This document shows positions 6,707 to 20,111 of a DNA stretch of 44,784 nucleotides, one piece after another. A model generated the notes under the pieces. The model had not been told where the DNA came from, searched no databases, and saw only the letters and a list, made by a program, of their open reading frames with translations. This DNA is from Escherichia phage mutPK1A2. A program made the translations under genes and the position numbers. The stretch is from sequence record NC_047889.1. One strand, 5' to 3'. The stretch's first letter is position 1. Each line of letters begins with the position of its first letter.

Positions 6707-8695
6707 ATGACTATTATTCAGAATGTACCGTGTCCTGCCTGTCAAAAGAATGGACATGATATTACTGGCAACCATCTTATGATATTTGAGGATGGCGCTG
6801 GTTACTGTAACCGTGGTCACTTCCATGATAACGGTAAGCCTTATTACCATAAGCCAGAGGGTGGCATCGAGATAACCGAATTGCCTATTACTGGCAATAT
6901 TAAATATACACCTTCTCAGTTTAAAGAGATGGAGAAGGAAGGGAAGATTAGCGACCCTAAGCTACGCGCCATCGCACTTGGTGGTATGCGTATGAAAGAC
7001 CGTTGGGGGGTTATGAATGAGCAAGAAAGGGCAGACCAAGAAGCAGAGTGGAAACTTGATGTTGAATGGTTCCTCACGCTTAAGCGTAAGAACCTTGTAT
7101 CCCGTCACATTCGAGGTGACATCGCAGCAATGTACGATGTGCGCGTTGGACACGATGAAGAGGGAAGAGTCAACCGTCACTATTATCCACGATATGAAAA
7201 GGGTGTGCTTGTTGGAGCAAAATGCCGGACGTTGCCGAAGGATTTTAAGTTCGGACACCTAGGTAAACTCTTTGGTATGCAAGATCTTTTCGGGATGAAT
7301 ACTTTGTCTCACGTGTTAGACAAGGGAAGACGAAAGGATTGCTTGCTTATTGTGGGCGGCGAACTGGATGCACTAGCAGCACAGCAAATGCTCCTTGATT
7401 CTGCCAAGGGTACTAAGTGGGAAGGCCAGCCTTATCATGTATGGTCTGTCAACAAAGGCGAGTCTTGCCTTGAAGAGATAGTGCAGAACCGTGAGCATAT
7501 CGCCCAATTCAAGAAGATTATATGGGGTTTTGATGGAGATGAGGTAGGGCAGAAGCAGAATCAGCAAGCGGCTCGCCTGTTTCCTGGCAAATCCTATATC
7601 CTTGAATACCCATCTGGTTGCAAAGATGCTAACAAGGCATTGATGGCTGGCAAGGCTAAAGAGTTTGTTGATGCTTGGTTTAATGCCAAGTCATCTGATG
7701 AAGTCTTTGGTAGCCAGATTAAATCTATCGCATCTCAAAGGGATAAGCTCAAGGCTGCACGTCCAGAGCAAGGGCTATCATGGCCTTGGCCTAAGCTGAA
7801 CAAGGTAACGCTAGGTATTCGTAAGAACCAGCTTATCATTGTAGGTGCAGGCTCTGGTGTAGGTAAGACTGAGTTCCTCCGCGAAGTGGTTAAACATCTT
7901 ATTGAAGAACACGGTGAATCTGTAGGCATCATTTCTACAGAAGACCCGATGGTCAAGGTGTCCCGTGCTTTTATCGGTAAGTGGATTGATAAGCGCATTG
8001 AGTTACCGCCAACCAATGACCCGAAAGAAGACGGATACCGTGAGGTGTTCGACTACACCGAGGAAGAAGCTAACGCTGCCATTGATTATGTGGCTGATAC
8101 AGGAAAGCTATTTGTGGCTGACCTAGAAGGCGACTATTCTATGGAGAAGGTAGAGCAAACTTGCCTAGAGTTTGAGGCTATGGGCATTTCTAATATCATC
8201 ATTGATAACTTAACGGGGATTAAATTAGATGAGCGTGCTTTTGGTGGGAAGGTTGGTGCACTTGATGAATGCGTCAAACGAATTGGTACTATCAAAGACC
8301 GACATGCGGTTACGATTTTCCTTGTCTCTCACCTTACACGTCCTCCGGCAAACCGTACCCAACACGAAGAAGGTGGCGAAGTTATCCTTTCTGACTTCCG
8401 AGGCTCAGGCGCTATCGGATTCTGGGCATCTTACGCCTTGGGGATTGAGCGTAATACAAGAGCTGAAACGCTTGATGAAAGGACTACCACGTACATCTCG
8501 TGTGTCAAAGACCGCGACCAAGGAATCTACACTGGAACCAAGGTCATGCTTAAGGGTGACATTCAAACCGGACGTTTAATGGAACCACAAGCCCGTACTA
8601 AGTCATTTGATACAGGTGAAGCAAGGCAACAAGAAGTACCTGATTTACCTGACACTATAGAAGGGACTAACTTCGATGAAGAAAGTGAGTTCTGA
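6707..8695 (+). CDS. DNA primase/helicase (T7 gp4-like)
   Basis: 662 aa; N-terminal Cys zinc-binding region (CPACQ...CNRGH), Walker A GAGSGVGKT, acidic C-terminus ending EESEF. Confidence 0.9.
   Translation: MTIIQNVPCPACQKNGHDITGNHLMIFEDGAGYCNRGHFHDNGKPYYHKPEGGIEITELPITGNIKYTPSQFKEMEKEGKISDPKLRAIALGGMRMKDRWGVMNEQERADQEAEWKLDVEWFLTLKRKNLVSRHIRGDIAAMYDVRVGHDEEGRVNRHYYPRYEKGVLVGAKCRTLPKDFKFGHLGKLFGMQDLFGMNTLSHVLDKGRRKDCLLIVGGELDALAAQQMLLDSAKGTKWEGQPYHVWSVNKGESCLEEIVQNREHIAQFKKIIWGFDGDEVGQKQNQQAARLFPGKSYILEYPSGCKDANKALMAGKAKEFVDAWFNAKSSDEVFGSQIKSIASQRDKLKAARPEQGLSWPWPKLNKVTLGIRKNQLIIVGAGSGVGKTEFLREVVKHLIEEHGESVGIISTEDPMVKVSRAFIGKWIDKRIELPPTNDPKEDGYREVFDYTEEEANAAIDYVADTGKLFVADLEGDYSMEKVEQTCLEFEAMGISNIIIDNLTGIKLDERAFGGKVGALDECVKRIGTIKDRHAVTIFLVSHLTRPPANRTQHEEGGEVILSDFRGSGAIGFWASYALGIERNTRAETLDERTTTYISCVKDRDQGIYTGTKVMLKGDIQTGRLMEPQARTKSFDTGEARQQEVPDLPDTIEGTNFDEESEF
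8643..8665 (+). promoter_or_regulatory. Phage promoter ATTTACCTGACACTATAGAAGGG inside the 3' end of the primase/helicase gene
   Basis: Good consensus match; T7-like phages often embed promoters in the ends of genes. Confidence 0.6.
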
Positions 8696-8716
8696 TTAGT
8701 GTATTTATTAGGGCTT

Positions 8717-8732
8717 GTCTCACATGTGAGAC
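8717..8732. repeat. 16-bp palindrome GTCTCACATGTGAGAC (copy 3, extended stem CTTGTCTCACATGTGAGACAGG)
   Basis: Exact core with extended complementary arms, followed by CTCTTATT. Confidence 0.85.
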
Positions 8733-8771
8733 AGGCTCTTATTAAGTATATTAAATAACTGGAGATTGATT

Positions 8772-9494
8772 ATGTATAAATTAGTATTGAATGCAGGTGA
8801 TTATGTTCGTAACATCAATGAAGCCTCACGTCGTTATCGTTGCCGTGGTGTAGTGGATCGTGTAAGTGAGAACATGTATCATGTAGAATATGATGATGGT
8901 GTTAAGGCTTCTTATCACAAGAAAACTGCACATAAATATCTTGAAAAGGTTGTAGAGGTAAACAATCAATGTAAGTGCATACATGATGAGGTTTGCGATA
9001 AGTGCAGACGTCAGGCAATTAAAGCCTTTACCTTTGCTCAACGCTATGGCTCTATGTATGGTACTGGTCACAAGACCCTTGCAGAAGCAGCTTGGAAGAC
9101 ATTGCAGTTTGAGCATTCAAATGGACGACGCACCACACTTAAGAAAGAGCGCCGCAATGTAATCACTGGTAAGACTCAAAGTGAGATGATTAAGCAATGT
9201 GGCACTGCATTAGGTGTTACACAGTTTAATACTCGTGCATTGGGTAAATCCACAGGACAAGCTATGGTAAAGATTGGCGAAGCCATGATGCATCCAAATG
9301 TACCTGTGCGAATCATGGATGTTGACCATGCAATCACAGAACAAGGTACGCAACGACGTGTAATTAATAAGCATTTTGCCGACACTATAGAAGGTATTAT
9401 TCGTAAGCAAGGGTTGAAAGGTCTTCACATCTTAAATGGTGAAGAATTACTGTACCTACCTATCGTTACTGAAGAAACCTACGTGAATATCTAA
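8772..9494 (+). CDS. Hypothetical protein (240 aa) with Cys cluster CKCIHDEVCDKC
   Basis: ORF track (first ATG at 8772, RBS GGAG); between primase and DNA polymerase. Confidence 0.6.
   Translation: MYKLVLNAGDYVRNINEASRRYRCRGVVDRVSENMYHVEYDDGVKASYHKKTAHKYLEKVVEVNNQCKCIHDEVCDKCRRQAIKAFTFAQRYGSMYGTGHKTLAEAAWKTLQFEHSNGRRTTLKKERRNVITGKTQSEMIKQCGTALGVTQFNTRALGKSTGQAMVKIGEAMMHPNVPVRIMDVDHAITEQGTQRRVINKHFADTIEGIIRKQGLKGLHILNGEELLYLPIVTEETYVNI
9373..9395 (+). promoter_or_regulatory. Weaker promoter-like element ATTTTGCCGACACTATAGAAGGT inside a CDS
   Basis: Core GACACTATAGAAGG conserved; upstream half diverges from consensus. Confidence 0.4.
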
Positions 9495-9504
9495 GGAGTT
9501 AATC

Positions 9505-9723
9505 ATGACTAAGGTATTAATTTATATGCGTGGACCTCATAAATGCTATGCAGTTGTAGCACCAGATGGTGTTAAGCCCTATGGTACTTCAAAAGGATTG
9601 GCATTAATAGGTGCTAGTCGTAGTGCAAGTTTCCAAATGGAACTTTTTGGTCATTGGACTGAATGGCAATTCCGTGAGGATTTTAAAGTCATTGGCAGCT
9701 TCATGGTGAAACATGCAAAATAA
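9505..9723 (+). CDS. Hypothetical protein (72 aa)
   Basis: ORF track; strong RBS TAAGGAG. Confidence 0.55.
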   Translation: MTKVLIYMRGPHKCYAVVAPDGVKPYGTSKGLALIGASRSASFQMELFGHWTEWQFREDFKVIGSFMVKHAK

Positions 9724-9922
9724 ACATAGTCTTAAAATGTTCGATGGTCATGAAGACCTGCAAGCCAAGATTACTAACCAAGCCTTCCTGTTTGCACAGC
9801 TAACTATGGCTGAAGCAAAGAAGAATAGCCTGACGCGCGAGCAAGTTATCAAAGAGGCAACTTGGGAGCCACACCAAGGCAAATACATGGGCCAGAAATT
9901 AACTGTAACACGCAGTCGATAA
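9713..9922 (+). CDS. Hypothetical protein (69 aa)
   Basis: ORF track; overlaps the previous gene by 11 nt; start uncertain. Confidence 0.4.
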   Translation: MQNKHSLKMFDGHEDLQAKITNQAFLFAQLTMAEAKKNSLTREQVIKEATWEPHQGKYMGQKLTVTRSR

Positions 9923-9932
9923 GTAAAGGGTT

Positions 9933-9948
9933 GTCTCACACGTGAGAC
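9933..9948. repeat. Palindrome variant GTCTCACACGTGAGAC (copy 4)
   Basis: One central substitution (CACGTG for CATGTG); follows an ORF stop and is followed by CCTTTC. Confidence 0.8.
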
Positions 9949-9979
9949 AGCCTTTCATCATATTGATTGGAGGTGCATT

Positions 9980-10087
9980 ATGTCACGTGATTATGATTCT
10001 GATTGGGATTTCCAAGATTCAATGAACTCAAAACCTGAACGTTCAGATGACTACTACGAAACAGAGGCAATGTATGAAAGCTATTAA
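9980..10087 (+). CDS. Small acidic protein (35 aa)
   Basis: RBS GGAGGT 7 nt before ATG; short, so tentative. Confidence 0.35.
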   Translation: MSRDYDSDWDFQDSMNSKPERSDDYYETEAMYESY

Positions 10088-10292
10088 AGTCAGTAAGGTT
10101 TGCTCTTGCGGTAAAGGTTATCGCAGTCGTATTGATGGTAAGTGTGGGCATTGCAGGTCTAAGAAAGAGGCTGCTTTGTTTGATAAGTACCACAATGAAT
10201 TAGCATATAACTATCCTCATCTAACACCTAATTCTTTATTAGGACTTGGTTATAGGGTTAAATACTTTGGAGCAATCTATGAAATCAATTGA
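10074..10292 (+). CDS. Small zinc-ribbon-like protein (72 aa; CxC...CxxC)
   Basis: In-frame ATG at 10074 with GAGG upstream inside track ORF 10047..10292; four Cys in VCSCGKG...CGHC; overlaps the DNAP start by 14 nt. Confidence 0.45.
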   Translation: MKAIKVSKVCSCGKGYRSRIDGKCGHCRSKKEAALFDKYHNELAYNYPHLTPNSLLGLGYRVKYFGAIYEIN

Positions 10293-12825
10293 TTGGAAGA
10301 AGGAAGCAGAAGGCCGCATCTTAGTGATGGATTCTGAGGCTAAAGGCCTGCTGGATGCTATCCGATATGGCCACCGCGAAGATGTGCACATCATTTGCTG
10401 CATGGATTTGCTTACTACAGAGGAGTTCCTCTTCTTTGACCCATACGAGATGCGTGACCCTGAAGCAAGAGAACGCCTAAAAGAATGGGAAGGCCATCAA
10501 GATGGAACATTGGTTGACGGTGTTAACTTCCTTAAGCACTGCGAAGCCATCGTCTCACAGAACTTCCTAGGGTACGACGGCCTTCTATTTGAGAAAGCAT
10601 TCCCTGATATCTGGAAAGGCTTTAACTATACCGAGAGACGCGGCAAGGGCAGACTCCGCGCTGACCTGTGTCCGGTACGCGTCATGGATACGCTGGTCAT
10701 GAGTCGCCTGTTAAACCCCGATAGACGCCTCCCTCCGCAAGCATACGCCAAAGGCATGGGTAACGTAGCCCCTCACTCAATTGAGGCGCACGGCATCCGT
10801 ATAGGCCGTTATAAGCCGGAGAACGAGGACTGGTCTAAACTAACGGACCACATGGTTCACCGTGTACGTGAAGACGTGGCTATTGGTCGCGACCTCTTCC
10901 TCTGGCTATACAACGGGGAATGGACGGAGCACAAACGCCGTGGCGTGAATAAACGTACGGGCCTAGGCATTGAGACGGCCTTCCACATGGAATCAATTGT
11001 GGCGCTGGAGATGAGCCGTCAGGCCGAGCGTGGATTCCGTCTGGATATAGATAAAGCATTAGCACGATGCGAGGAATTGGACGCTAAGATTGATGAGACA
11101 GTCGCAGCGTTCCGTCCGCACATGCCTATGCGTATCAGGTCTAAACCTTTTAAACCGGAAGAAAAGAATGAAGTATGCCAACGCGCAAATGAGTATGGAG
11201 CTAGCAACAATATACCTACTGTCCTTGACCCCTCACACTTTCTTCATGCCGAGAGACGAGGAGATCGCAAAACAGTATGGAGTGTCACTACTAAGTCTGG
11301 TGATTGGTCGGCTAGTATCAAGAAAGACTTTCCTCACCTTAGAGGAAACCGTAATGACACGCCAAGTATCAAGTGGATTGGCGCTTACTCGCCTGTTACT
11401 TTCGAAGAGATTCCCTTGGGTAACAGGGATACAGTTAAGCAAGTGCTCTATGATTATGGATGGAAAGGTGTTGAATTTAACGATACCGAGCAAGCGCATC
11501 TGGATGAGTATGGAGTGTTACCCAAACCTTGGAGTGGGAAGATAAATGAAAAGTCCCTTACTTTATGGCAAGAGAGAGCCGCACGTGAAGGTAAAACAGT
11601 CCCTGATTGGTGCTTGGGTATCGCTGCATGGTACATACTCGTATCCCGTCGTGGTCAGATCCTTAACCGTGGTGACGTTGAAGCCTTCGACCAGAAGGGG
11701 GCGTGGCCTTCGCAAGCTGGTGTACGAAAGTGTCGCGGCCTTGTACCTGTAGCATTTAACAAGGAGTTAGGAATCAATGCGCAGCAATATTACGAAAGGT
11801 ACGGATGCTGGCCTACGTCAGACAAGGATGACGGAGAGTGGCGTGTGCCAGCTATTGCTATTAGTATTGGAACTTCTACGTTCCGTATGCGTCATCGTAA
11901 CGTGGTTAATATTCCTGCCCGTGGTTTGTATCCTTTACGTGATTTATTCATAGCCGGTAAAGGTAAGCTAATCCTTGGTTGTGATGGTGCTGGTCTTGAA
12001 CTACGTGTACTGTCTCACTTCATGAATGACCCTGAATATCAAGATATTGTACTGCATGGTGACATTCACACCCATAATCAAATGAAGGCTGGTCTTCCTA
12101 AGCGTGACATGGCGAAGACATTTATATATGCCTTCCTATATGGGTCTGGTATAGCTAGCCTTGCAGCAGTATGTGGTGTTACTGAGGAAGAAATGGAGGA
12201 AGTTGTGGCAAGATTTGAGGTTGAACTACCATCTCTTGCACGTCTTCGTGAGAATGTTATCGCACAAGGTAACAAGTTTGGCTACCTACAAGCACCTGAT
12301 GGTCATTGGGGTCGCATCCGTATGTCTGGTGGTGAACTTAAAGAGCACACTATGCTTAACGTGTTACTCCAAATGACTGGCTCTTTGTGTATGAAATACG
12401 CATTGGTCAGAGCGTTTGCAGTGATGCGCAAGGAAGGTGTGGCCTTAGATAGCATGGGAAACCCTTGCGGTATAGCTAACGTGCACGATGAAATCCAGAT
12501 GGAAGTCCCTGAAGATGAGGTCTTGTTTCTCAACTACGACTTGCCTTTCACCTTAGAAGGGTTCGAAACAGAGAAGGCTGCTGTGAAAGCAGTGTTCGAT
12601 GCAGAGGAGAAACGTGTTCATGTGGATTCTGAAGGACGTATGTGGTCTGCTGCAAATCTCGTTAGCGTTGATGCTGATGCTGGTGTACTTCATTGCCAGC
12701 GTCGCTATCACCGTGCAGGGCATATCATTGCCGACGCAATGACTTGGGCGGGTCAGTATCTGAAGATGCGTTGTCCGATGGCAGGTGAGTATAAGATTGG
12801 TGCAAGTTGGAAGGAGACACACTAA
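10279..12825 (+). CDS. Family A DNA polymerase (T7 gp5-like)
   Basis: 848 aa from ATG 10279 (RBS GGAG); exo motif DSEAKGL, pol motifs DGAGLELRVL, RDMAKTFIYAFLYGSG, HDE. Confidence 0.95.
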   Translation: MKSIDWKKEAEGRILVMDSEAKGLLDAIRYGHREDVHIICCMDLLTTEEFLFFDPYEMRDPEARERLKEWEGHQDGTLVDGVNFLKHCEAIVSQNFLGYDGLLFEKAFPDIWKGFNYTERRGKGRLRADLCPVRVMDTLVMSRLLNPDRRLPPQAYAKGMGNVAPHSIEAHGIRIGRYKPENEDWSKLTDHMVHRVREDVAIGRDLFLWLYNGEWTEHKRRGVNKRTGLGIETAFHMESIVALEMSRQAERGFRLDIDKALARCEELDAKIDETVAAFRPHMPMRIRSKPFKPEEKNEVCQRANEYGASNNIPTVLDPSHFLHAERRGDRKTVWSVTTKSGDWSASIKKDFPHLRGNRNDTPSIKWIGAYSPVTFEEIPLGNRDTVKQVLYDYGWKGVEFNDTEQAHLDEYGVLPKPWSGKINEKSLTLWQERAAREGKTVPDWCLGIAAWYILVSRRGQILNRGDVEAFDQKGAWPSQAGVRKCRGLVPVAFNKELGINAQQYYERYGCWPTSDKDDGEWRVPAIAISIGTSTFRMRHRNVVNIPARGLYPLRDLFIAGKGKLILGCDGAGLELRVLSHFMNDPEYQDIVLHGDIHTHNQMKAGLPKRDMAKTFIYAFLYGSGIASLAAVCGVTEEEMEEVVARFEVELPSLARLRENVIAQGNKFGYLQAPDGHWGRIRMSGGELKEHTMLNVLLQMTGSLCMKYALVRAFAVMRKEGVALDSMGNPCGIANVHDEIQMEVPEDEVLFLNYDLPFTLEGFETEKAAVKAVFDAEEKRVHVDSEGRMWSAANLVSVDADAGVLHCQRRYHRAGHIIADAMTWAGQYLKMRCPMAGEYKIGASWKETH

Positions 12826-12923
12826 TGCAAACTGCTTTTATCATTCTTGGGATCATATTATTTATGGTAGTACTCTGGGCTTTCTCTGGCATTGACCCAG
12901 ATTGTGATGGTAACTACGACTGA
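12825..12923 (+). CDS. Small hydrophobic membrane peptide (32 aa)
   Basis: ATG overlapping the DNAP stop (TAATG); AGGAG upstream; sequence MQTAFIILGIILFMVVLWAFSG is one TM helix. Confidence 0.3.
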   Translation: MQTAFIILGIILFMVVLWAFSGIDPDCDGNYD

Positions 12924-12991
12924 GTTATACTCAAGGTCACTTACGAGTGGCCTTTATGCATAACTTATTCCTACTTATTTTGTCTAACATG

Positions 12992-13014
12992 ATTTACTGG
13001 ACACTATAGAAGGA
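12992..13014 (+). promoter_or_regulatory. Phage promoter ATTTACTGGACACTATAGAAGGA
   Basis: Exact consensus copy. Confidence 0.75.
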
Positions 13015-13078
13015 AATCCTAGGTAATCTAGGTTTATAAGGTAGTATAGGTAACTAAGTAAATATAGGAGATATAAAT

Positions 13079-13465
13079 ATGTCTATGGTAACTACTCTGG
13101 TATTCGTGGCTCAATACTTTCGTGGTCTGGCTAATAAGTTCAAGTCCAAGGCCATCAAAGCTATTGAGTCTCGCATCGAAGCAGTACAGGCAGAGCAAGT
13201 TAAAGTTGAAGACCATCGTAGTTCTCAAATGATTGACTGTCACAACCGCTACTATGCATCTCGTGATGAATTAAATGCACGTCAAGTCAAAGAGGTTGAA
13301 GAAATGATGGCACGTCACCAGCAAGAGCGTGACAACCTGAAAGCTGACTTCGAAGAGAACAAGGCATCCATTGCTCTGGTACATCAAGCTGCATCTGATA
13401 GCTTGAAGAAAGAGATTGTTATGCTGGAAATTGAACTGGACAACTTGACTAATAAGGAGCTATGA
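13079..13465 (+). CDS. Hypothetical coiled-coil protein (128 aa)
   Basis: ORF track; RBS TAGGAG; heptad-like charged sequence. Confidence 0.6.
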   Translation: MSMVTTLVFVAQYFRGLANKFKSKAIKAIESRIEAVQAEQVKVEDHRSSQMIDCHNRYYASRDELNARQVKEVEEMMARHQQERDNLKADFEENKASIALVHQAASDSLKKEIVMLEIELDNLTNKEL

Positions 13466-13761
13466 TGGAAGAAGTGATTCAAGCTAAACATGTAGGTATC
13501 ATCTTTCGTGATCTAGAGCAGCGTAAAGTTGCAGGTCATACCCGTTTGGCTAAAGAAGATGATACAGCAATCACTACTGTTGAACAAGCAGATGCCTATC
13601 GTGGTCCAGAGTTTACTCAAGGTGAAACTTGTCACCAATTGAGCCTATCACTTTGTGACACCATGGCTATTGTAAATGTGCAAGAAGTTGAAGAAGGTGA
13701 GTGTGTCAGTTACATCTACCCTTTAGATACTATTGCACGCATTAAGGTAATCCATAAGTAA
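13462..13761 (+). CDS. Hypothetical protein (99 aa)
   Basis: ORF track; RBS AAGGAG; start overlaps the previous stop. Confidence 0.55.
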   Translation: MMEEVIQAKHVGIIFRDLEQRKVAGHTRLAKEDDTAITTVEQADAYRGPEFTQGETCHQLSLSLCDTMAIVNVQEVEEGECVSYIYPLDTIARIKVIHK

Positions 13762-13783
13762 TTACTGGACACTATAGAACAAT
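13759..13783 (+). promoter_or_regulatory. Phage promoter (AATTACTGGACACTATAGAACAA)
   Basis: Consensus core; followed by a roughly 190-bp structured leader with several hairpins before a strongly expressed gene. Confidence 0.7.
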
Positions 13784-13974
13784 AGGATGTGGGTTTGTCG
13801 GAGACAGTAAAGCCAAGGTGCTCAGTGAGCGTAAAGCCTAAGCACGTCCTATGATTGTAAAGTGTTGATGTTGAACCCTTGTGCATCTTGCACAACCCGA
13901 TACTATATCGGGCTTTCTAGTGAGTACATGCTTGTGCTCAGTACAAAGCTAACTGACAATAGGAGACTAAATAA

Positions 13975-14781
13975 ATGGCACGTGGTGATTTTGATTTTGG
14001 TGCTCAGATTACTAAATCTGAAGGTAAAGTCTTTAAGAATCCAGAAGTAGGTGATCATGAAGCAGTAATCTCTGGCATCATTCATGTTGGTTCCTTCCAA
14101 GACATCTTTAAGAAAGGTAATACCACTGAAGTTAAGAAGCCAGCAAACTTTGTTCTGGTTAAGATTGTCCTGATGGGTGACGATGACAAGAACGAAGATG
14201 GTTCTCGCATGGAACAATGGATGGCTGTGCCTCTGAAGTCTGGTGATAAGGCAACACTGACTAAGTTCCTGAATGCAGTTGACCCTAAAGAGTTGCTGGG
14301 TGGCTTCGATGATTTCATTGGTGAATGCCTGACTGCAACGATGGTTGGTTCTGGTGACAAGAATGACGATGGCTCATTCAAGTATGTTAACTGGAAAGGT
14401 TTCGGTGGTATGCCGGACAAGCTGAAGAAACTTGTCATTGCTCAGGTTGAAGAAGAAGGTCTGTCGATGACAGGTCACATCACCTTCGACAAACTGACCA
14501 AAGAAATCCTTGATGATATTCCTGCTAACTTGGTGCGTCAATACTTCCTTAACGAGACGCCTCGTGGTAAGAACATGTCTGTTTCTGGTTCTCACGTAGA
14601 AGCAATCATCAAAGCTGCTCGCGAAGAAGACCCAGAGTGGAAGAAGGCTAAGAAGAAAGAAGAGGAAGATGCTACCCCAGCTAATCGTAAATCTCTGGCT
14701 ACTGGTGAGTCTGTTCCGCAGGAAGTACCTGAAGCAGAAGATACTCCTGCACCGGAGATGGATGAGGACGCGGAATATTAA
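13975..14781 (+). CDS. Putative ssDNA-binding protein (gp2.5-like)
   Basis: 268 aa; own promoter and structured leader; acidic C-terminal tail ending DEDAEY as in T7 gp2.5; no direct similarity verified. Confidence 0.4.
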   Translation: MARGDFDFGAQITKSEGKVFKNPEVGDHEAVISGIIHVGSFQDIFKKGNTTEVKKPANFVLVKIVLMGDDDKNEDGSRMEQWMAVPLKSGDKATLTKFLNAVDPKELLGGFDDFIGECLTATMVGSGDKNDDGSFKYVNWKGFGGMPDKLKKLVIAQVEEEGLSMTGHITFDKLTKEILDDIPANLVRQYFLNETPRGKNMSVSGSHVEAIIKAAREEDPEWKKAKKKEEEDATPANRKSLATGESVPQEVPEAEDTPAPEMDEDAEY

Positions 14782-14790
14782 GGAGAACGG

Positions 14791-15009
14791 ATGAAAGTAC
14801 AAATCGTAACTCTACATTGCAAGAAAGGAGTCACCACGCTTGGCGGCAACACTTTTCACTCCTTCTCCGAAGGGGAGGTTTATGCTGACCTGCACTACAT
14901 CTGGCGCGATGGGCAGCACGTGGTGAACTACAGCGACCCTGCGACTGGTAAACGCCACGGCGTGTCGCTTCCGGCGCACGACATTGCGCAGGTGAACACA
15001 GTTTTATAA
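14791..15009 (+). CDS. Hypothetical protein (72 aa)
   Basis: ORF track; RBS AAGGAG. Confidence 0.5.
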   Translation: MKVQIVTLHCKKGVTTLGGNTFHSFSEGEVYADLHYIWRDGQHVVNYSDPATGKRHGVSLPAHDIAQVNTVL

Positions 15010-15010
15010 A

Positions 15011-15026
15011 GTCTCACACGTGAGAC
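15011..15026. repeat. Palindrome variant GTCTCACACGTGAGAC (copy 5)
   Basis: Immediately after a stop codon and 15 bp upstream of the promoter at 15042. Confidence 0.8.
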
Positions 15027-15041
15027 AACTCGGTGTCCGGT

Positions 15042-15064
15042 ATTTACTGGACACTATAGAAGAG
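15042..15064 (+). promoter_or_regulatory. Phage promoter ATTTACTGGACACTATAGAAGAG
   Basis: Exact consensus. Confidence 0.75.
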
Positions 15065-15114
15065 AAGAATTTTAATCGGCGATAATGCCATAACCAACAA
15101 AAGGAGAATTTAAT

Positions 15115-15489
15115 ATGTTCAAGATTGAAACTATCGTAAACCGTGTTGTTAAAGGTGCTGCTCTGGTATCCGTTGAGTCTTTCATTATCGTCGATGAAGC
15201 TGACCAACTGGTAGCTGGTACTAAGGCTTATGATACCCGTGAAGAGGCTCAGGCTAAAATTGACAGCATGGGTAACTTCGCTGCGGGTCTGGAGTTTGCT
15301 CGTGCTTGCTTCCATGAGCAGGCTGACAAAGCTCAGATCGGTAAGGCTAATATCGTAGCTGAATATCTGGATTGGATTGCTGCTGGTAAGCCAGTGAAAG
15401 AAGTTAAAGCTGCTGAAGAAGCTGAAGCTCCGGCAGTGGAAGAATCCGCTGCACCGGAAGCTCCGGTAAGTGAAGAAGAAGAGTTTTAA
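15115..15489 (+). CDS. Hypothetical acidic protein (124 aa) with C-terminal tail ending EEEEF
   Basis: ORF track; strong RBS AAGGAG; Ala/Glu-rich acidic tail ending in Phe. Confidence 0.6.
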   Translation: MFKIETIVNRVVKGAALVSVESFIIVDEADQLVAGTKAYDTREEAQAKIDSMGNFAAGLEFARACFHEQADKAQIGKANIVAEYLDWIAAGKPVKEVKAAEEAEAPAVEESAAPEAPVSEEEEF

Positions 15490-15495
15490 TTTATG

Positions 15496-15528
15496 CCCTG
15501 TCTGACTTAGTGCAGGCAGGGTCTTTTG
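15496..15528 (+). terminator. Candidate intrinsic terminator
   Basis: 9-bp stem CCCTGTCTG / CAGGCAGGG with 8-nt loop followed by TCTTTTG. Confidence 0.5.
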
Positions 15529-15553
15529 CGTAATAGTTATTGGAGAATGAATT

Positions 15554-15859
15554 ATGCCGACTATTAAATCTCGTTTAGTAGCAGACTATGTTTATGGTCG
15601 TGATGCTAGAACTTTGAAAGACTATTTCAAAGTAATCATCTTGCTGGATGGAGAAGTGTTTCACACTAAAACATTCACCCTCCCTGAATTGTTTGATTTA
15701 GGTTACTGGGGTTGTACATATCAGGCCATAGCAGACAAGGTGCTACTCAGTGTGTTAAAGGAGTGGCCTACATGCGACCAAACTTCGACTTCGGAGCTAC
15801 AGTATCGGAAGATAATAACCTGTTGCTGTGGCCGACTGAAGGTAATAGAATCGCTTTAA
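15554..15859 (+). CDS. Hypothetical protein (101 aa)
   Basis: ORF track; RBS GGAG; 3' end overlaps the exonuclease gene in another frame by about 88 nt, so the true end is uncertain. Confidence 0.4.
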   Translation: MPTIKSRLVADYVYGRDARTLKDYFKVIILLDGEVFHTKTFTLPELFDLGYWGCTYQAIADKVLLSVLKEWPTCDQTSTSELQYRKIITCCCGRLKVIESL

Positions 15860-16800
15860 TAGATGCTGATATGTTACCCTACATCGTAGGTTATACAATC
15901 AGTGACATGACTTATGTACGAGCCACAACTCGTGTTAAGTCAGGACAAGCCCCATCAATCAAAGATACACCTGAGTGTAAGCAAGCGTGTGACCGTGTGA
16001 ACTCCTTGCTTAACTCTTGGGTGTATGCAGCAGAGTGCGATGCAGCTAAGTTATTCTTGACGAAATCAGAAGCTAACTTCCGTGTTCGCCTAGCATTCAC
16101 CAAGCCTTACAAGGGTCAACGTAAGACCGAGAAGCCTCCCTTCTTCTATGAATTGCGAGAGCATCTCTTAGAGGTTCACGGTGCAATCTTGGCAGATGGA
16201 GAAGAAGCTGATGACCTCATGAGCATCGCACAATGGGCTAGCCACCGCCGCTTCCTGCAAGATACAGGTAACGAGTTCCCTATCGGTAGTCCAGAGCATA
16301 AAGCATTCTCTGATACTTGCATCGTTTCCTTAGATAAGGATTTGATGATTGTTCCCGGTTGGCATCTTCAGCCGGGTCAAGAGAAGAAATGGGTAGAACC
16401 TATGGGTTGGCTTGAGTTACGCCGCAAGGCTAACGGTCAAGTCAAAGACCTAAAAGGTGCTGGCCTTATGTTCCATTATGCACAGATGATTATCGGTGAT
16501 GATATTGATAACTATGCTGGCATACCTGGTCGTGGTGCTAAATATGCCTATGATCTTCTCAAAGGTTGTAAGACAGAGAAAGAATTGTACATGGCAGTGC
16601 TTGGAGCTTACAAAGCTAAGTTCGGTCATGGACAGGTTAAGATTAAGAATTACCGAGGTGGTTATCGGGTTGGCAAAGCCTTTGACCTTATGCTTGAATG
16701 TGGTCGCCTAGCACACATGGCTAGGTTCAAAGGTGATATATGGCGGGCCGATAAGAACCCAATCTTGTGGGGAGATGATGCGGAATGGTTAGCAAATTAA
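15772..16800 (+). CDS. 5'-3' exonuclease (T7 gp6-like, FEN family)
   Basis: Start ATG 15772 with RBS AAGGAG; acidic active-site-like motifs IALIDADMLPY, EADDLMSIA, VSLDKDLMIVPG in the arrangement of FEN-type exonucleases. Confidence 0.7.
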   Translation: MRPNFDFGATVSEDNNLLLWPTEGNRIALIDADMLPYIVGYTISDMTYVRATTRVKSGQAPSIKDTPECKQACDRVNSLLNSWVYAAECDAAKLFLTKSEANFRVRLAFTKPYKGQRKTEKPPFFYELREHLLEVHGAILADGEEADDLMSIAQWASHRRFLQDTGNEFPIGSPEHKAFSDTCIVSLDKDLMIVPGWHLQPGQEKKWVEPMGWLELRRKANGQVKDLKGAGLMFHYAQMIIGDDIDNYAGIPGRGAKYAYDLLKGCKTEKELYMAVLGAYKAKFGHGQVKIKNYRGGYRVGKAFDLMLECGRLAHMARFKGDIWRADKNPILWGDDAEWLAN

Positions 16801-17198
16801 AAGCATCGGAGGTGGCAGCTTATAAGAAGGAATTGCTAGATAAGCAAGGATGGAAATGCCCTCTGTGTGGCGGCAGCCTCAAAGCTGTCACACCTGTAAA
16901 CCGTGTACTTGACCATGACCATGAGACAGGATTCTGCCGTGCTGTTGTATGCCGAGGCTGCAATGGTGCGGAAGGGAAGATTAAGGGTGTTATCTCTGGT
17001 TATGGTAAGGCGGGTAATAACCGTTACTTCCAGCTTCAATGGTTAGAGAGATTGTATGAATACTGGAAGTTACATAGTACGCCTCAGACAGATAAGTTAT
17101 ATCACAAACATCAAACGGAGGCAGAGAAGCGCGAGGCTAAGAACCGTAAGGCACGCCTTGCTTATGCAAGAAAGAAGAAGGAGGTTAAAGTTGGGTAA
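16785..17198 (+). CDS. Endonuclease VII-like Holliday junction resolvase
   Basis: CPLCGG...LDHDHETGFCRAVVCRGCNGAEGKIKG matches the zinc/HNH-like motif pattern I recall for T4 endonuclease VII (CLICQ...HLDHDHE...CNLCNAAEG). Confidence 0.7.
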   Translation: MVSKLKASEVAAYKKELLDKQGWKCPLCGGSLKAVTPVNRVLDHDHETGFCRAVVCRGCNGAEGKIKGVISGYGKAGNNRYFQLQWLERLYEYWKLHSTPQTDKLYHKHQTEAEKREAKNRKARLAYARKKKEVKVG

Positions 17199-18198
17199 GC
17201 TTCGCAGCTTGTACAAAGACTCCGAGGTACTTGATGCAATCGAGCAAGCTACCGACGAGAAAGGTAATGTTAACTACAATGAGATGGCACGTGTATTATC
17301 GTGTCATCCTGTGGGTAAGAAGATTACCCGCCAGTTGGCTCGATACTGGCATGGTCAATTCAAGAAGACCAAGAAGAATGGTGATTACTATCAGACTCTT
17401 CTGCAAGAGGATCGGCGCATCAAAGAAGGGCGTAAGCTCAGGACTCCTGACCGTTACGAGGATTTGGCTGTTGTACCATTGCCTGACTCGCCTCATCGAA
17501 GTGTACTGGTAATCCCTGATACTCATGCACCTTATGAGCACCCAGATACCTTAGGGTTCCTTGCAGCAGTGGCAGCACGTTACCGTCCAGACACAGTGGT
17601 ACATCTCGGAGATGAAGCAGATAAACACGCCCTCTCCTTCCACGACTCTGATCCAAATCTGGATAGTGCTGGGGTGGAATTGGAGAAGGCTCGTGTCTTT
17701 ATGCATAAGCTGCATAAGATGTTTCCTGTGATGCGCCTGTGTCATTCTAATCACGGCTCTATGCACTTCCGTAAGGCAAGCGCCAAAGGTATTCCTGTAC
17801 AATATCTGCGTACCTATCGTGAAGTCTTCTTTCCGCATGGGGGTGGCGACCAGTGGGATTGGCAGCATACACACGTTCTTGAGTTGCCGAATGGTGAACA
17901 GGTTGCATTTAAGCATCAACCCGCAGGCTCAGTCTTAGCAGATGCAGCGCATGAGCGCATGAACTTAGTGTGCGGTCACTTGCATGGTAAGATGTCGGTG
18001 GAGTATGCACGTAATACACATGAACAGTATTGGGCTGTGCAGGGCGGCTGTTTGATTGATGAGTCATCTCGTGCATTTGCCTATGGTCGTGAGTCCAAAT
18101 ACAAGCCAGCATTAGGTTGTGTGGTTATTCTGGAGGGTGTGCCGCACATTGTCCCGATGCAGACCAATAGTGATAATCGCTGGATTGGTAAGATTTAG
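17191..18198 (+). CDS. Calcineurin-like metallophosphoesterase
   Basis: Motifs VIPDTHAP (DxH), HLGDEAD (GDxxD), CHSNHGS (GNH-like), GHLHG; start placed at TTG 17191 behind AAGGAGG (track ATG 17056 would overlap the resolvase by 143 nt); start is uncertain. Confidence 0.65.
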   Translation: MGKLRSLYKDSEVLDAIEQATDEKGNVNYNEMARVLSCHPVGKKITRQLARYWHGQFKKTKKNGDYYQTLLQEDRRIKEGRKLRTPDRYEDLAVVPLPDSPHRSVLVIPDTHAPYEHPDTLGFLAAVAARYRPDTVVHLGDEADKHALSFHDSDPNLDSAGVELEKARVFMHKLHKMFPVMRLCHSNHGSMHFRKASAKGIPVQYLRTYREVFFPHGGGDQWDWQHTHVLELPNGEQVAFKHQPAGSVLADAAHERMNLVCGHLHGKMSVEYARNTHEQYWAVQGGCLIDESSRAFAYGRESKYKPALGCVVILEGVPHIVPMQTNSDNRWIGKI

Positions 18199-18215
18199 TT
18201 GACACTATAGAACAA
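18193..18215 (+). promoter_or_regulatory. Phage promoter ATTTAGTTGACACTATAGAACAA
   Basis: Closest of all copies to the classical SP6 promoter ATTTAGGTGACACTATAGAAG. Confidence 0.65.
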
Positions 18216-18265
18216 AGGGTAGGTATTAGCTTACCCTTGATTGTATAGTGAATGGAGGAATTAAT

Positions 18266-18805
18266 ATGTCACAATATGTATGTGAGAAATGCGGCAATCG
18301 ATATGATAACTGCACCTGTGATTATAATAAAGGTAAAAGGATTAAATCAGGTGATTATGTTATACGACGTGCAGGCTGCCGCGACCCAGAGTGGGGCAGG
18401 GTGTGTAAACTATTAGGCAAGAAATCAGATGCAACATTCAAAGTTATAAAGGATGAGTCTGTCGGCAGCGCCATTATACTTGAAGGTATCGAAAAGCGAG
18501 AATGGTATGCACCTTTTTTCGAGAGAGTGGCAACCCCACCAGTTGTACCTGAGTCTAATAACTCAAACAATAATATGGTTACGCAACCTAAGCACTACGA
18601 GTTCTTCGATGGGGTAGAGGCAATCACTATCATTGCTCGTAGTATGACCGAGAAGCAATTTGCTGGATATTGCATGGGTAATGCTTTGAAGTATCGTCTG
18701 CGTGCAGGGAAGAAATTCAACACGGAAGAAGACCTGAAGAAAGCAGACTACTACAAAGAGCTATTCCAGAAGCATCGTCACGAATGTATTGATGAGGATA
18801 TTTAA
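18266..18805 (+). CDS. gp1.7-like nucleotide kinase
   Basis: C-terminal block PKHYEFFDGVEAITIIARSMTEKQFAGYCMGNALKYRLRAGKK...ADYYKELF matches my recollection of the T7 gp1.7 conserved domain; N-terminal Cys-rich region; RBS GGAGG. Confidence 0.65.
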   Translation: MSQYVCEKCGNRYDNCTCDYNKGKRIKSGDYVIRRAGCRDPEWGRVCKLLGKKSDATFKVIKDESVGSAIILEGIEKREWYAPFFERVATPPVVPESNNSNNNMVTQPKHYEFFDGVEAITIIARSMTEKQFAGYCMGNALKYRLRAGKKFNTEEDLKKADYYKELFQKHRHECIDEDI

Positions 18806-18806
18806 T

Positions 18807-18980
18807 ATGGAAGGTAAACTATATAGAGGGTACTTCGGTAACTTATATAGAGTAAGCCCTCTCGGTTTTGTATTGACCTCCAATGATGAAGGTGCAATGT
18901 GGTTCCTAAGTGCCTATGGTTCTGACTTAGCATACTTTAAAGAGGCAATAGTTAAAGGTGTGATGAAGGAGGTGAAATGA
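18807..18980 (+). CDS. Hypothetical protein (57 aa)
   Basis: Part of track ORF 18789..18980; ATG 18807 chosen on RBS GAGGA. Confidence 0.35.
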   Translation: MEGKLYRGYFGNLYRVSPLGFVLTSNDEGAMWFLSAYGSDLAYFKEAIVKGVMKEVK

Positions 18981-19924
18981 ATATCTTCCAATTCCTAGGT
19001 CTTCCAGAAGACCACCGCAATCACCCATTCATGCTGGTGAAACATCGCGGTGAAGTACCTGAGAAGAAATTAACTTTTCCATGTTATGCACAGGTAAAAC
19101 GAGATGGTATATTTAGTGCTGTGGTTGTTCGCAACGATGGTGTCGTTGGTGTCTTTGGACGCACTGGAAAGAAACTGGCTAACACGGAAACCTTGGAAGA
19201 ATCTTATTCAGCTTTCCCTACTGGCATTTATCTCGGTGAGTTGCAATCTATGGCTATTGATGTCTACCTTGAAGCACTTTCTGGAGTAGTTAACCCTAAC
19301 CGCACTGAGCCACTGGATTTCATAGGCCAGCAGATTAAAGACAACCTGTATATTGACTTCTTCGATATGTTAACTATTAAGGCATTCCATGATGGATTCA
19401 CTGATGTTTCTTATCTCAAACGTTACGATGCTTTACATCGTCGCATCGGCGCTCATCTTAGCGGGTACAACGCTATCCTTCCTATTACTCCTTGCCATAA
19501 TGAGCGAGAAGTTGAAGCGTTTGCGCAAGAGCAAATAGACGCAGGCCGAGAGGGTGCTGTGTTTAAACTGGACTGTGATTATGAAGCAGGCCACAAAGGT
19601 TATCGTCAGACTAAAGAAGTCCGTAAGGTAACTTATGACCTTACTTGTATTGGCTTTGAAGAAGGCAAAGGTAAGTACAAAGGTAAGGTAGCTAACCTCA
19701 TTTTCAAATGGAAAGGAGGCAAGACAATCAAAGCTATGTTAGGTAAAGGGTGGACTCATGCAGATGCAGAACAGATGTTCCACGATATTAAACATGGTGG
19801 ACGATTGAATGTCATTGGTAAAATCTTTGAAGTAAAAGGTCTTCAGGATTCAAGCAAGGGCAACATTCGTCTGCCCAAAGCGGGAGAATTAAGACATGAC
19901 AAAGATGAACCAGATTTCTTTTGA
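18977..19924 (+). CDS. ATP-dependent DNA ligase
   Basis: 315 aa; adenylation motif I KRDG in VKRDGIFSAV; strong RBS AAGGAGGTG; C-terminus DEPDFF. Confidence 0.85.
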   Translation: MNIFQFLGLPEDHRNHPFMLVKHRGEVPEKKLTFPCYAQVKRDGIFSAVVVRNDGVVGVFGRTGKKLANTETLEESYSAFPTGIYLGELQSMAIDVYLEALSGVVNPNRTEPLDFIGQQIKDNLYIDFFDMLTIKAFHDGFTDVSYLKRYDALHRRIGAHLSGYNAILPITPCHNEREVEAFAQEQIDAGREGAVFKLDCDYEAGHKGYRQTKEVRKVTYDLTCIGFEEGKGKYKGKVANLIFKWKGGKTIKAMLGKGWTHADAEQMFHDIKHGGRLNVIGKIFEVKGLQDSSKGNIRLPKAGELRHDKDEPDFF

Positions 19925-20111
19925 TAGCATGAAGGCAACTCGTGCAGTTGAGGTAGCAGAAGTTATCTTTGAAACTTTATCCTGTGGCATGGAAGTGCCA
20001 TATACCTTACTAGCTGATGCAGAAGAGCTTGGTCTTTCTGTAGAAGCTATCCAAGAGAAAGTTGAAGAACTCTATGGTACAGACGAAGAAGAAACCGACG
20101 ATTTCATTTGA
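19896..20111 (+). CDS. Hypothetical acidic protein (71 aa)
   Basis: ORF track; RBS GGGAG; overlaps the ligase end. Confidence 0.4.
   Translation: MTKMNQISFDSMKATRAVEVAEVIFETLSCGMEVPYTLLADAEELGLSVEAIQEKVEELYGTDEEETDDFI

Follow-up and report, generated by a model that had tools for sequence, protein, structure and literature searches.

The tail of Escherichia coli SSB (the protein that binds single-stranded DNA) ends in the tip ..PPMDFDDDIPF, in which the penultimate Pro is important for partner binding, and in bacteriophage T7 the acidic, Phe-ended tail of gp2.5 is essential for its interaction with gp5 and gp4. The acidic tails of T7 gp4 and gp2.5 bind the front and thioredoxin-binding (TBD) basic patches of the polymerase gp5 and compete with each other there (PMC12339929; bioRxiv 10.64898/2026.05.20.726333); the front patch consists of K587, K589, R590, and R591 (PMC12339929), and the second is held by the thioredoxin-binding loop (bioRxiv 10.64898/2026.05.20.726333). 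Here we describe acidic, aromatic-capped C-termini in Escherichia phage mutPK1A2 (NC_047889.1; 44,784 nucleotides, the whole stretch of DNA analyzed, hereafter the window), which shares 93-95% DNA identity with Escherichia phage K1E and other Vectrevirus phages (Autographiviridae, Molineuxvirinae). Such tails are carried by the primase-helicase and by two proteins of 268 and 124 amino acids (p268 and p124). Reasoning from T7, we hold it somewhat better than an even chance that the three tails are T7-type docking motifs for one basic, hydrophobic site in the replisome. The genes and their tails are as follows.

6707..8695, plus strand: primase-helicase, equivalent of K1E gp9 and homologue of T7 gp4 (Pfam DnaB_C and Toprim_2; phrog_239, E 6e-187)
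8582..8692, plus strand: primase-helicase C-terminal tail, residues 626-662, net charge -8, ending NFDEESEF, beyond the region alignable with gp4
13975..14781, plus strand: p268, equivalent of K1E gp16, a predicted OB-fold protein that is probably the phage SSB and matches no Pfam family
14641..14778, plus strand: p268 C-terminal linker and tip, residues 223-268, net charge -7, predicted to be disordered
15115..15489, plus strand: p124, small stand-alone protein, equivalent of K1E gp18 and SP6 gp20
15394..15486, plus strand: p124 tail, residues 94-124, net charge -9, ending ..PVSEEEEF

The original prediction, made from the sequence alone, named four proteins with endings of this kind, and translation of the open reading frames (ORFs) bears out all four: ..TNFDEESEF (primase-helicase), ..EMDEDAEY (p268), ..PVSEEEEF (p124), and ..HDKDEPDFF (the DNA ligase, discussed below). 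To count such endings we asked for F, Y, or W as the last residue and a net charge of -3 or lower over the last eight residues. Exactly these four among the 50 plus-strand genes qualify, against 0.13 expected from internal 8-mers of the same proteome and 0.18 from composition-preserving shuffles (binomial P ~1e-5), and none of 5,000 shuffles gave four qualifying genes. All four lie within the 18-gene replication (DNA-metabolism) block (hypergeometric P = 0.013). Applied to phage T7, the same rule selects gp2.5 (..DEDGDF) and gp4 (..SNDTDF) and nothing else, so that the T7 ligase is not picked. When [DE][FYW]-COOH and three or more acidic residues among the last six are required instead, the primase-helicase, p268, and p124 stay and the ligase drops out. 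Chance or compositional bias was considered as a source of the pattern and is rejected by the internal 8-mer and shuffle controls.

Relatives were gathered by protein search, by a p268 profile that recovered 42 viral contigs spanning the whole module at identities from 97% down to 30%, and from four further Pseudomonas Uliginvirus genomes. Tail statistics were anchored on the right and counted over distinct sequences. The terminal residue is aromatic in 27 of 29 helicase tails, 31 of 35 p268 tails, and 31 of 36 p124 tails (the latter taken from the loci); an aromatic residue lies within the last three positions in every case (29/29, 35/35, and 36/36); and Glu occupies position -2 in 22, 29, and 30 of them, respectively. 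Pro at -2 was found in none of these tails. The tips hold over relatives down to 30-45% identity, and the consensus across the three proteins is [DE][DE]-x-E-[F/Y]-COOH. In p268 and p124 the tips are fixed, and the linkers that precede them are variable and of low complexity (alignments A1 and A2); both tails are predicted to be disordered, with predicted local distance difference test (pLDDT) values below 50. A variable linker leading to a fixed tip is the signature of a short linear motif, and in all three proteins the charge sits at the extreme C-terminus. Conservation in relatives, the lack of which would have refuted the original prediction by its own terms, is found for the primase-helicase, p268, and p124.

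The tips also change together in part. In the lineage of loci L026-L028, both the helicase and p124 have gone from F to Y, and all three proteins then end in E-Y. Throughout the genus Uliginvirus (uligo, Njord, Ulitu01, Achelous, Alpheus, and BUCT553), p268 and p124 each extend one or two residues past the aromatic in every genome where they were recovered; p268 ends in ..EEQEFGE, ..EEVFE, or ..EQTFD, and p124 in ..EETFE, ..ESFEG, ..EAFEG, or ..ESFS.

The C-terminal tail of the primase-helicase is the homologous feature, in a sister subfamily, of the T7 gp4 tail. The two enzymes share 25% identity (BLASTP, E 3e-29) over the primase and helicase cores, and the alignment stops at residue 607. 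Like gp4, the enzyme carries an acidic, disordered tail at its C-terminus with a terminal Phe and a second aromatic at position -7 (W in ..TDWSNDTDF of gp4), but the tail has 17 residues in T7 and about 37 here, and the tip reads D-F in T7 and E-F here. In the window the two aromatics, at -7 and -1, fall within residues 656-662 (8672-8692); distant relatives show PFDVD.. at the corresponding place, and the conserved -7 aromatic suggests that the tip may be bipartite. As a separate observation, the primase-helicase gene of some close relatives (Escherichia phage ULINTec6, L050 1-2767) consists of two coding sequences split by an inserted HNH homing endonuclease gene; unlike the ULINTec6 copy, the window gene is uninterrupted.

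That p268 is a phage SSB is a well-supported inference from its model. The predicted structure is an OB fold whose best fold matches are ssDNA (single-stranded DNA) binders, the top one being PrgE of plasmid pCF10, and structural matches in BFVD include uncharacterized proteins of many podoviruses together with DUF669 proteins, a group put forward as SSBs that bear acidic tails (PMC4889955). Residues 229-268 have pLDDT values mostly below 50, and the conserved tip reads AP-x-[ML]-D-[ED]-x-x-E-[YF] (alignment A1). Comparison of the p268 profile with T7 gp2.5 gave no similarity (hhalign probability 0.08%), and no Pfam, NCBI-style, or PDB sequence match was obtained; p268 as a detectable gp2.5 homologue was rejected after these searches. 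The label "putative SSB" that the protein had received earlier stands as far as the modeled OB fold goes, and finds no counterpart in sequence homology to gp2.5. p268 and gp2.5 have in common an OB-fold core, a tail that is long, acidic, and disordered, a conserved terminal aromatic, and a gene within the DNA-metabolism block; the differences are the lack of detectable sequence homology and the terminal residue, which is usually Tyr in p268 and Phe in gp2.5.

The protein p124 (gp18) is likely the third user of the motif. It is laid out as a folded N-terminal part of about 90 residues, a disordered Ala/Glu/Pro linker, and the EEEEF tip. Its structure model, of moderate quality and built on a shallow alignment, has a confident beta-hairpin and helix over residues 1-55 and less confident helices to about residue 90; the most conserved residues (..KAN..A.YL) sit in these latter helices. 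The isoelectric point (pI) is 4.4, but the folded part has a net charge of only -4, most of the charge being in the disordered tail. All 120 closer homologues end in EEEF. An exhaustive hidden Markov model (HMM) search of 1.84 billion representatives found 29 clusters, all of stand-alone proteins of about 110-125 amino acids, and no informative fusion, so that the family is small as well as phage-restricted; about 17 of the 23 readable distant cluster representatives end in acidic residues followed by F. No Pfam family, DUF1508 included, matches p124 at E values up to 10, and the idea that it is a DUF1508/UPF0339 (YegP-like) small domain was dropped when that Pfam family model was not matched. 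A fold search returned only weak small-domain matches and none to known DNA mimics; the earlier suggestion that p124 might be a DNA mimic has no specific support. The slot of the gene, between the SSB candidate and the exonuclease, is constant across subfamilies.

In distant relatives, short ORFs of 78-100 amino acids between the SSB candidate and the exonuclease resemble truncated p124 homologues. They share ..GKF..V..DGKV.. and ..K.N/R.I..FL.FEA, and their tails vary: EDF, ETF, EEF followed by seven residues, GDEE, or none. They lie at the following positions.

L031 4527-4787: short p124-like ORF
L035 3561-3836: short p124-like ORF
L034 10034-10336: short p124-like ORF
L038 10827-11090: short p124-like ORF
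L032 2373-2609: short p124-like ORF

Under the docking reading, the acidic charges of the tip, its terminal aromatic, and its carboxylate would enter a basic, hydrophobic site of a partner, so that several replisome components could be recruited to the same site, compete for it, and be exchanged on it. By analogy with T7, we infer that the tails bind, that they share one site, and that this site is on the phage DNA polymerase, the most likely partner; for the SSB tail, the protein's own ssDNA-binding groove would be a second likely partner, as in T7. The candidate receptor and its most basic region are placed as follows.

10246..12825, plus strand: family A DNA polymerase (gp13), candidate receptor of the tails (Pfam DNA_pol_A)
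11113..11430, plus strand: Arg/Lys-rich thumb insertion, about residues 290-395 of the ORF, at the site of the T7 thioredoxin-binding loop

The true start of the polymerase is likely ATG 10279, as annotated in K1E, and its closest solved relative is T7 gp5 (E 1e-28). In a MAFFT alignment of 21 polymerases and T7 gp5, the thumb insertion has conserved R/K positions (..ERRGDRKTVW..SIKKDFPHLRGNRNDT) and is at least similar in length to the T7 thioredoxin-binding loop; it is a possible docking surface. No polymerase residue change in this alignment could be matched to the change of the Uliginvirus tips.

Within such a scheme p124 would be a third client of, or competitor for, the site, acting as an accessory or regulator of the polymerase or the SSB. 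That it belongs to the replisome as an accessory or regulator not recognized before, with the shared E-F tip as its address and only conserved handle, is a tentative proposal, to which we give clearly less credence than to docking as such. It might dock on the basic thumb insertion as a polymerase accessory and take the place of host thioredoxin in processivity or exchange, or it might be a dedicated competitor that times the hand-off among helicase, SSB, and polymerase. The arrangement would resemble that of E. coli SSB in its disordered linker and acidic tip, its terminal aromatic and carboxylate, and in the use of one motif and one type of pocket, with competition. It would differ in that one tail there serves many genome-maintenance proteins, whereas several proteins here bear a tail, and in the replacement of the penultimate Pro by Glu.

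Several observations weigh against a common docking tip. The SP6 primase-helicase (L011 3257-5242) ends in ..NTQEFNG, its closest relatives ending in ..NTQEF; the two extra SP6 residues could be a true extension or could reflect a difference in sequence close to the stop codon. About 6 of the 23 distant p124 representatives lack the tip, as do divergent short p124-like ORFs: that of L032 is tailless, that of L038 ends in GDEE, and that of L034 has seven residues after EEF. In Uliginvirus the helicase is extended past the aromatic in uligo and Njord and not in Ulitu01, Achelous, and Alpheus (2 of the 5 genomes that yielded it). The coordinated tip changes come from only two independent lineages, so that their support for a common reader is suggestive rather than statistical. 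Finally, the front basic patch of T7 gp5, KWKRR, is not conserved in the polymerase here; HMMER aligns GHWGRIR with it, and MAFFT a gap.

Four other explanations of the tails can be set against the docking reading; they are taken here in order of falling weight. The tails may act mainly in cis, as electrostatic mimics of ssDNA that fold onto each protein's own DNA-binding surface and tune its affinity, in which case their likeness would reflect a generic requirement. The tail of T7 gp2.5 does modulate DNA accessibility according to the literature, the tails here are long, acidic, and disordered, and p268 is modeled as an OB-fold protein. Pure electrostatics, however, needs no terminal aromatic in fixed register, yet one is present in 86-93% of the tails, and p124 has no recognizable DNA-binding domain for a tail to occlude. 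We judge a mainly cis role unlikely, and since cis and trans roles coexist in T7 it is in any case compatible with docking. Less probable still is that the tips imitate the host SSB tip and recruit or titrate host proteins that interact with SSB, such as exonuclease I, RecQ, PriA, and the Pol III chi subunit, p124 acting as a decoy to disarm host nucleases or repair enzymes. The p268 tip AP-x-MD-E-x-x-E-Y does resemble PPMDFDDDIPF in its Pro...Met-Asp start, its acidic run, and its terminal aromatic, and p124 is small and acidic (pI 4.4), with no enzymatic signature. This mimicry is disfavored because 76-89% of the tails have Glu where the key penultimate Pro would stand; moreover, the tips differ among phage lineages though the host SSB tip is nearly constant, and the helicase tail is shared with T7 gp4, for which the phage polymerase is the documented partner. 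The D-D-D-I-P-F form of the E. coli SSB C-terminus, with its penultimate Pro, is not that of the tails here.

Phage early and middle regions are rich in anti-defense inhibitors, and p124, acidic overall and from a small, phage-restricted family, could be an anti-defense or DNA-mimic protein unrelated to replication, with only a coincidental likeness of tail. We consider this improbable: the folded part carries a charge of only -4 and the disordered tail most of the rest, the gene lies at a fixed place across subfamilies, with the SSB candidate on one side and the exonuclease on the other, the tip is conserved residue for residue and shifts with the p268 tip in Uliginvirus, and no known DNA mimic has a matching fold. 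As to a compositional accident of acidic phage proteins, other acidic ends here do occur without a terminal aromatic (the Ocr-like protein, ..GEEEE; the nucleotide kinase, ..IDEDI; and the gp25-like protein, ..TDDFI). Four qualifying genes against 0.13-0.18 expected, and tips that are kept at 30-45% identity while their linkers drift, leave this explanation with very little credibility for the set as a whole, and for the primase-helicase, p268, and p124 chance is refuted.

The docking reading would extend the tail-docking logic of T7 to a subfamily in which the SSB is not a detectable gp2.5 homologue and the polymerase lacks the front basic patch. Because the principle is textbook knowledge for T7, the gain is incremental; the only new element is p124 as a third tail-bearer, in an otherwise familiar mechanism. 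For SP6/K1E-like phages, which have found wide use (SP6 RNA polymerase; K1-specific therapeutic phages), gp16 offers a testable SSB assignment that has no detectable gp2.5 homology yet has the same kind of tail. The hints that the tips evolve in a coordinated way are a further small gain. If the reading is true, these phages would provide a simple setting in which to study several clients competing at one site on a replicative polymerase. If it is true for p124 as well, and taken together with the partly conserved ends of the ligase and the gp25-like protein, the tip would be an "address label" for the whole replisome of SP6-like and Colwellvirinae phages.

The ligase, counted by the original prediction as a fourth bearer of a shared code, was downgraded after comparison with the ends of its relatives, and a protein encoded just after it has a looser ending of a similar kind.

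18977..19924, plus strand: ATP-dependent DNA ligase, 315 amino acids, equivalent of K1E gp24 (Pfam DNA_ligase_A_M, PF01068, and DNA_ligase_OB_2, PF14743)
19904-19921, plus strand: last six residues of the ligase, DEPDFF, after motif VI (RHDK)
19896..20111, plus strand: gp25-like acidic protein, 71 amino acids, pI 4.05, ending ..EEETDDFI, directly after the ligase gene and overlapping its end

The Pfam match to the OB domain of the ligase reaches residue 306 of 315, and ..LPKAGELRHDK is motif VI of ATP-dependent ligases, so that the "tail" amounts to only six residues. Relatives end in EVPDVY, EEPDVF, ELPDV, EFADVE, EDADA, EEPDVQ, TEADV, SEPDF, or TVGDF; what they conserve is a core, [PA]-D-[VF], after which a final F/Y is optional. 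Of 24 distinct ligase tails, 17 have an aromatic end and 7 lack one, and the ligase end does not change in step with the tips of the helicase, p268, and p124. The shared motif thus stands for those three proteins, on the strength of conserved tips and partial co-variation, and fails for the ligase. As its alignment reads, the ligase C-terminus is probably outside the shared code, although it may be a weak variant, and its acidic aromatic end is possibly a compositional accident. Relatives of the gp25-like protein end in ..ADYQY, ..ETDY, ..EAYY, ..EQDY, ..SEEY, ..GSDW, or plain acidic residues; this is a looser, fifth acidic/aromatic tail, probably outside the core set.

The records viewed, those of K1E (RefSeq), ULINTec6, and four Uliginvirus phages, label p268 and p124 only "hypothetical protein," so that no SSB is annotated there and the replisome is undescribed; in the literature we found no description of tails like these, or of an SSB, in SP6/K1E-like phages. 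The window is itself a whole K1E/K1-5/SP6-like genome of 44.8 kb: the exact direct repeats at both ends show it to be a complete linear phage genome.

1-286 and 44499-44784: direct terminal repeats, exact, 286 bp

Near its left end, the Ocr-like anti-restriction protein (1899-2228, equivalent of K1E gp3) ends in ..YEGEEEE, without an aromatic cap, and T7 Ocr is likewise purely acidic at its end (..EEYEEDEE), with no aromatic cap.

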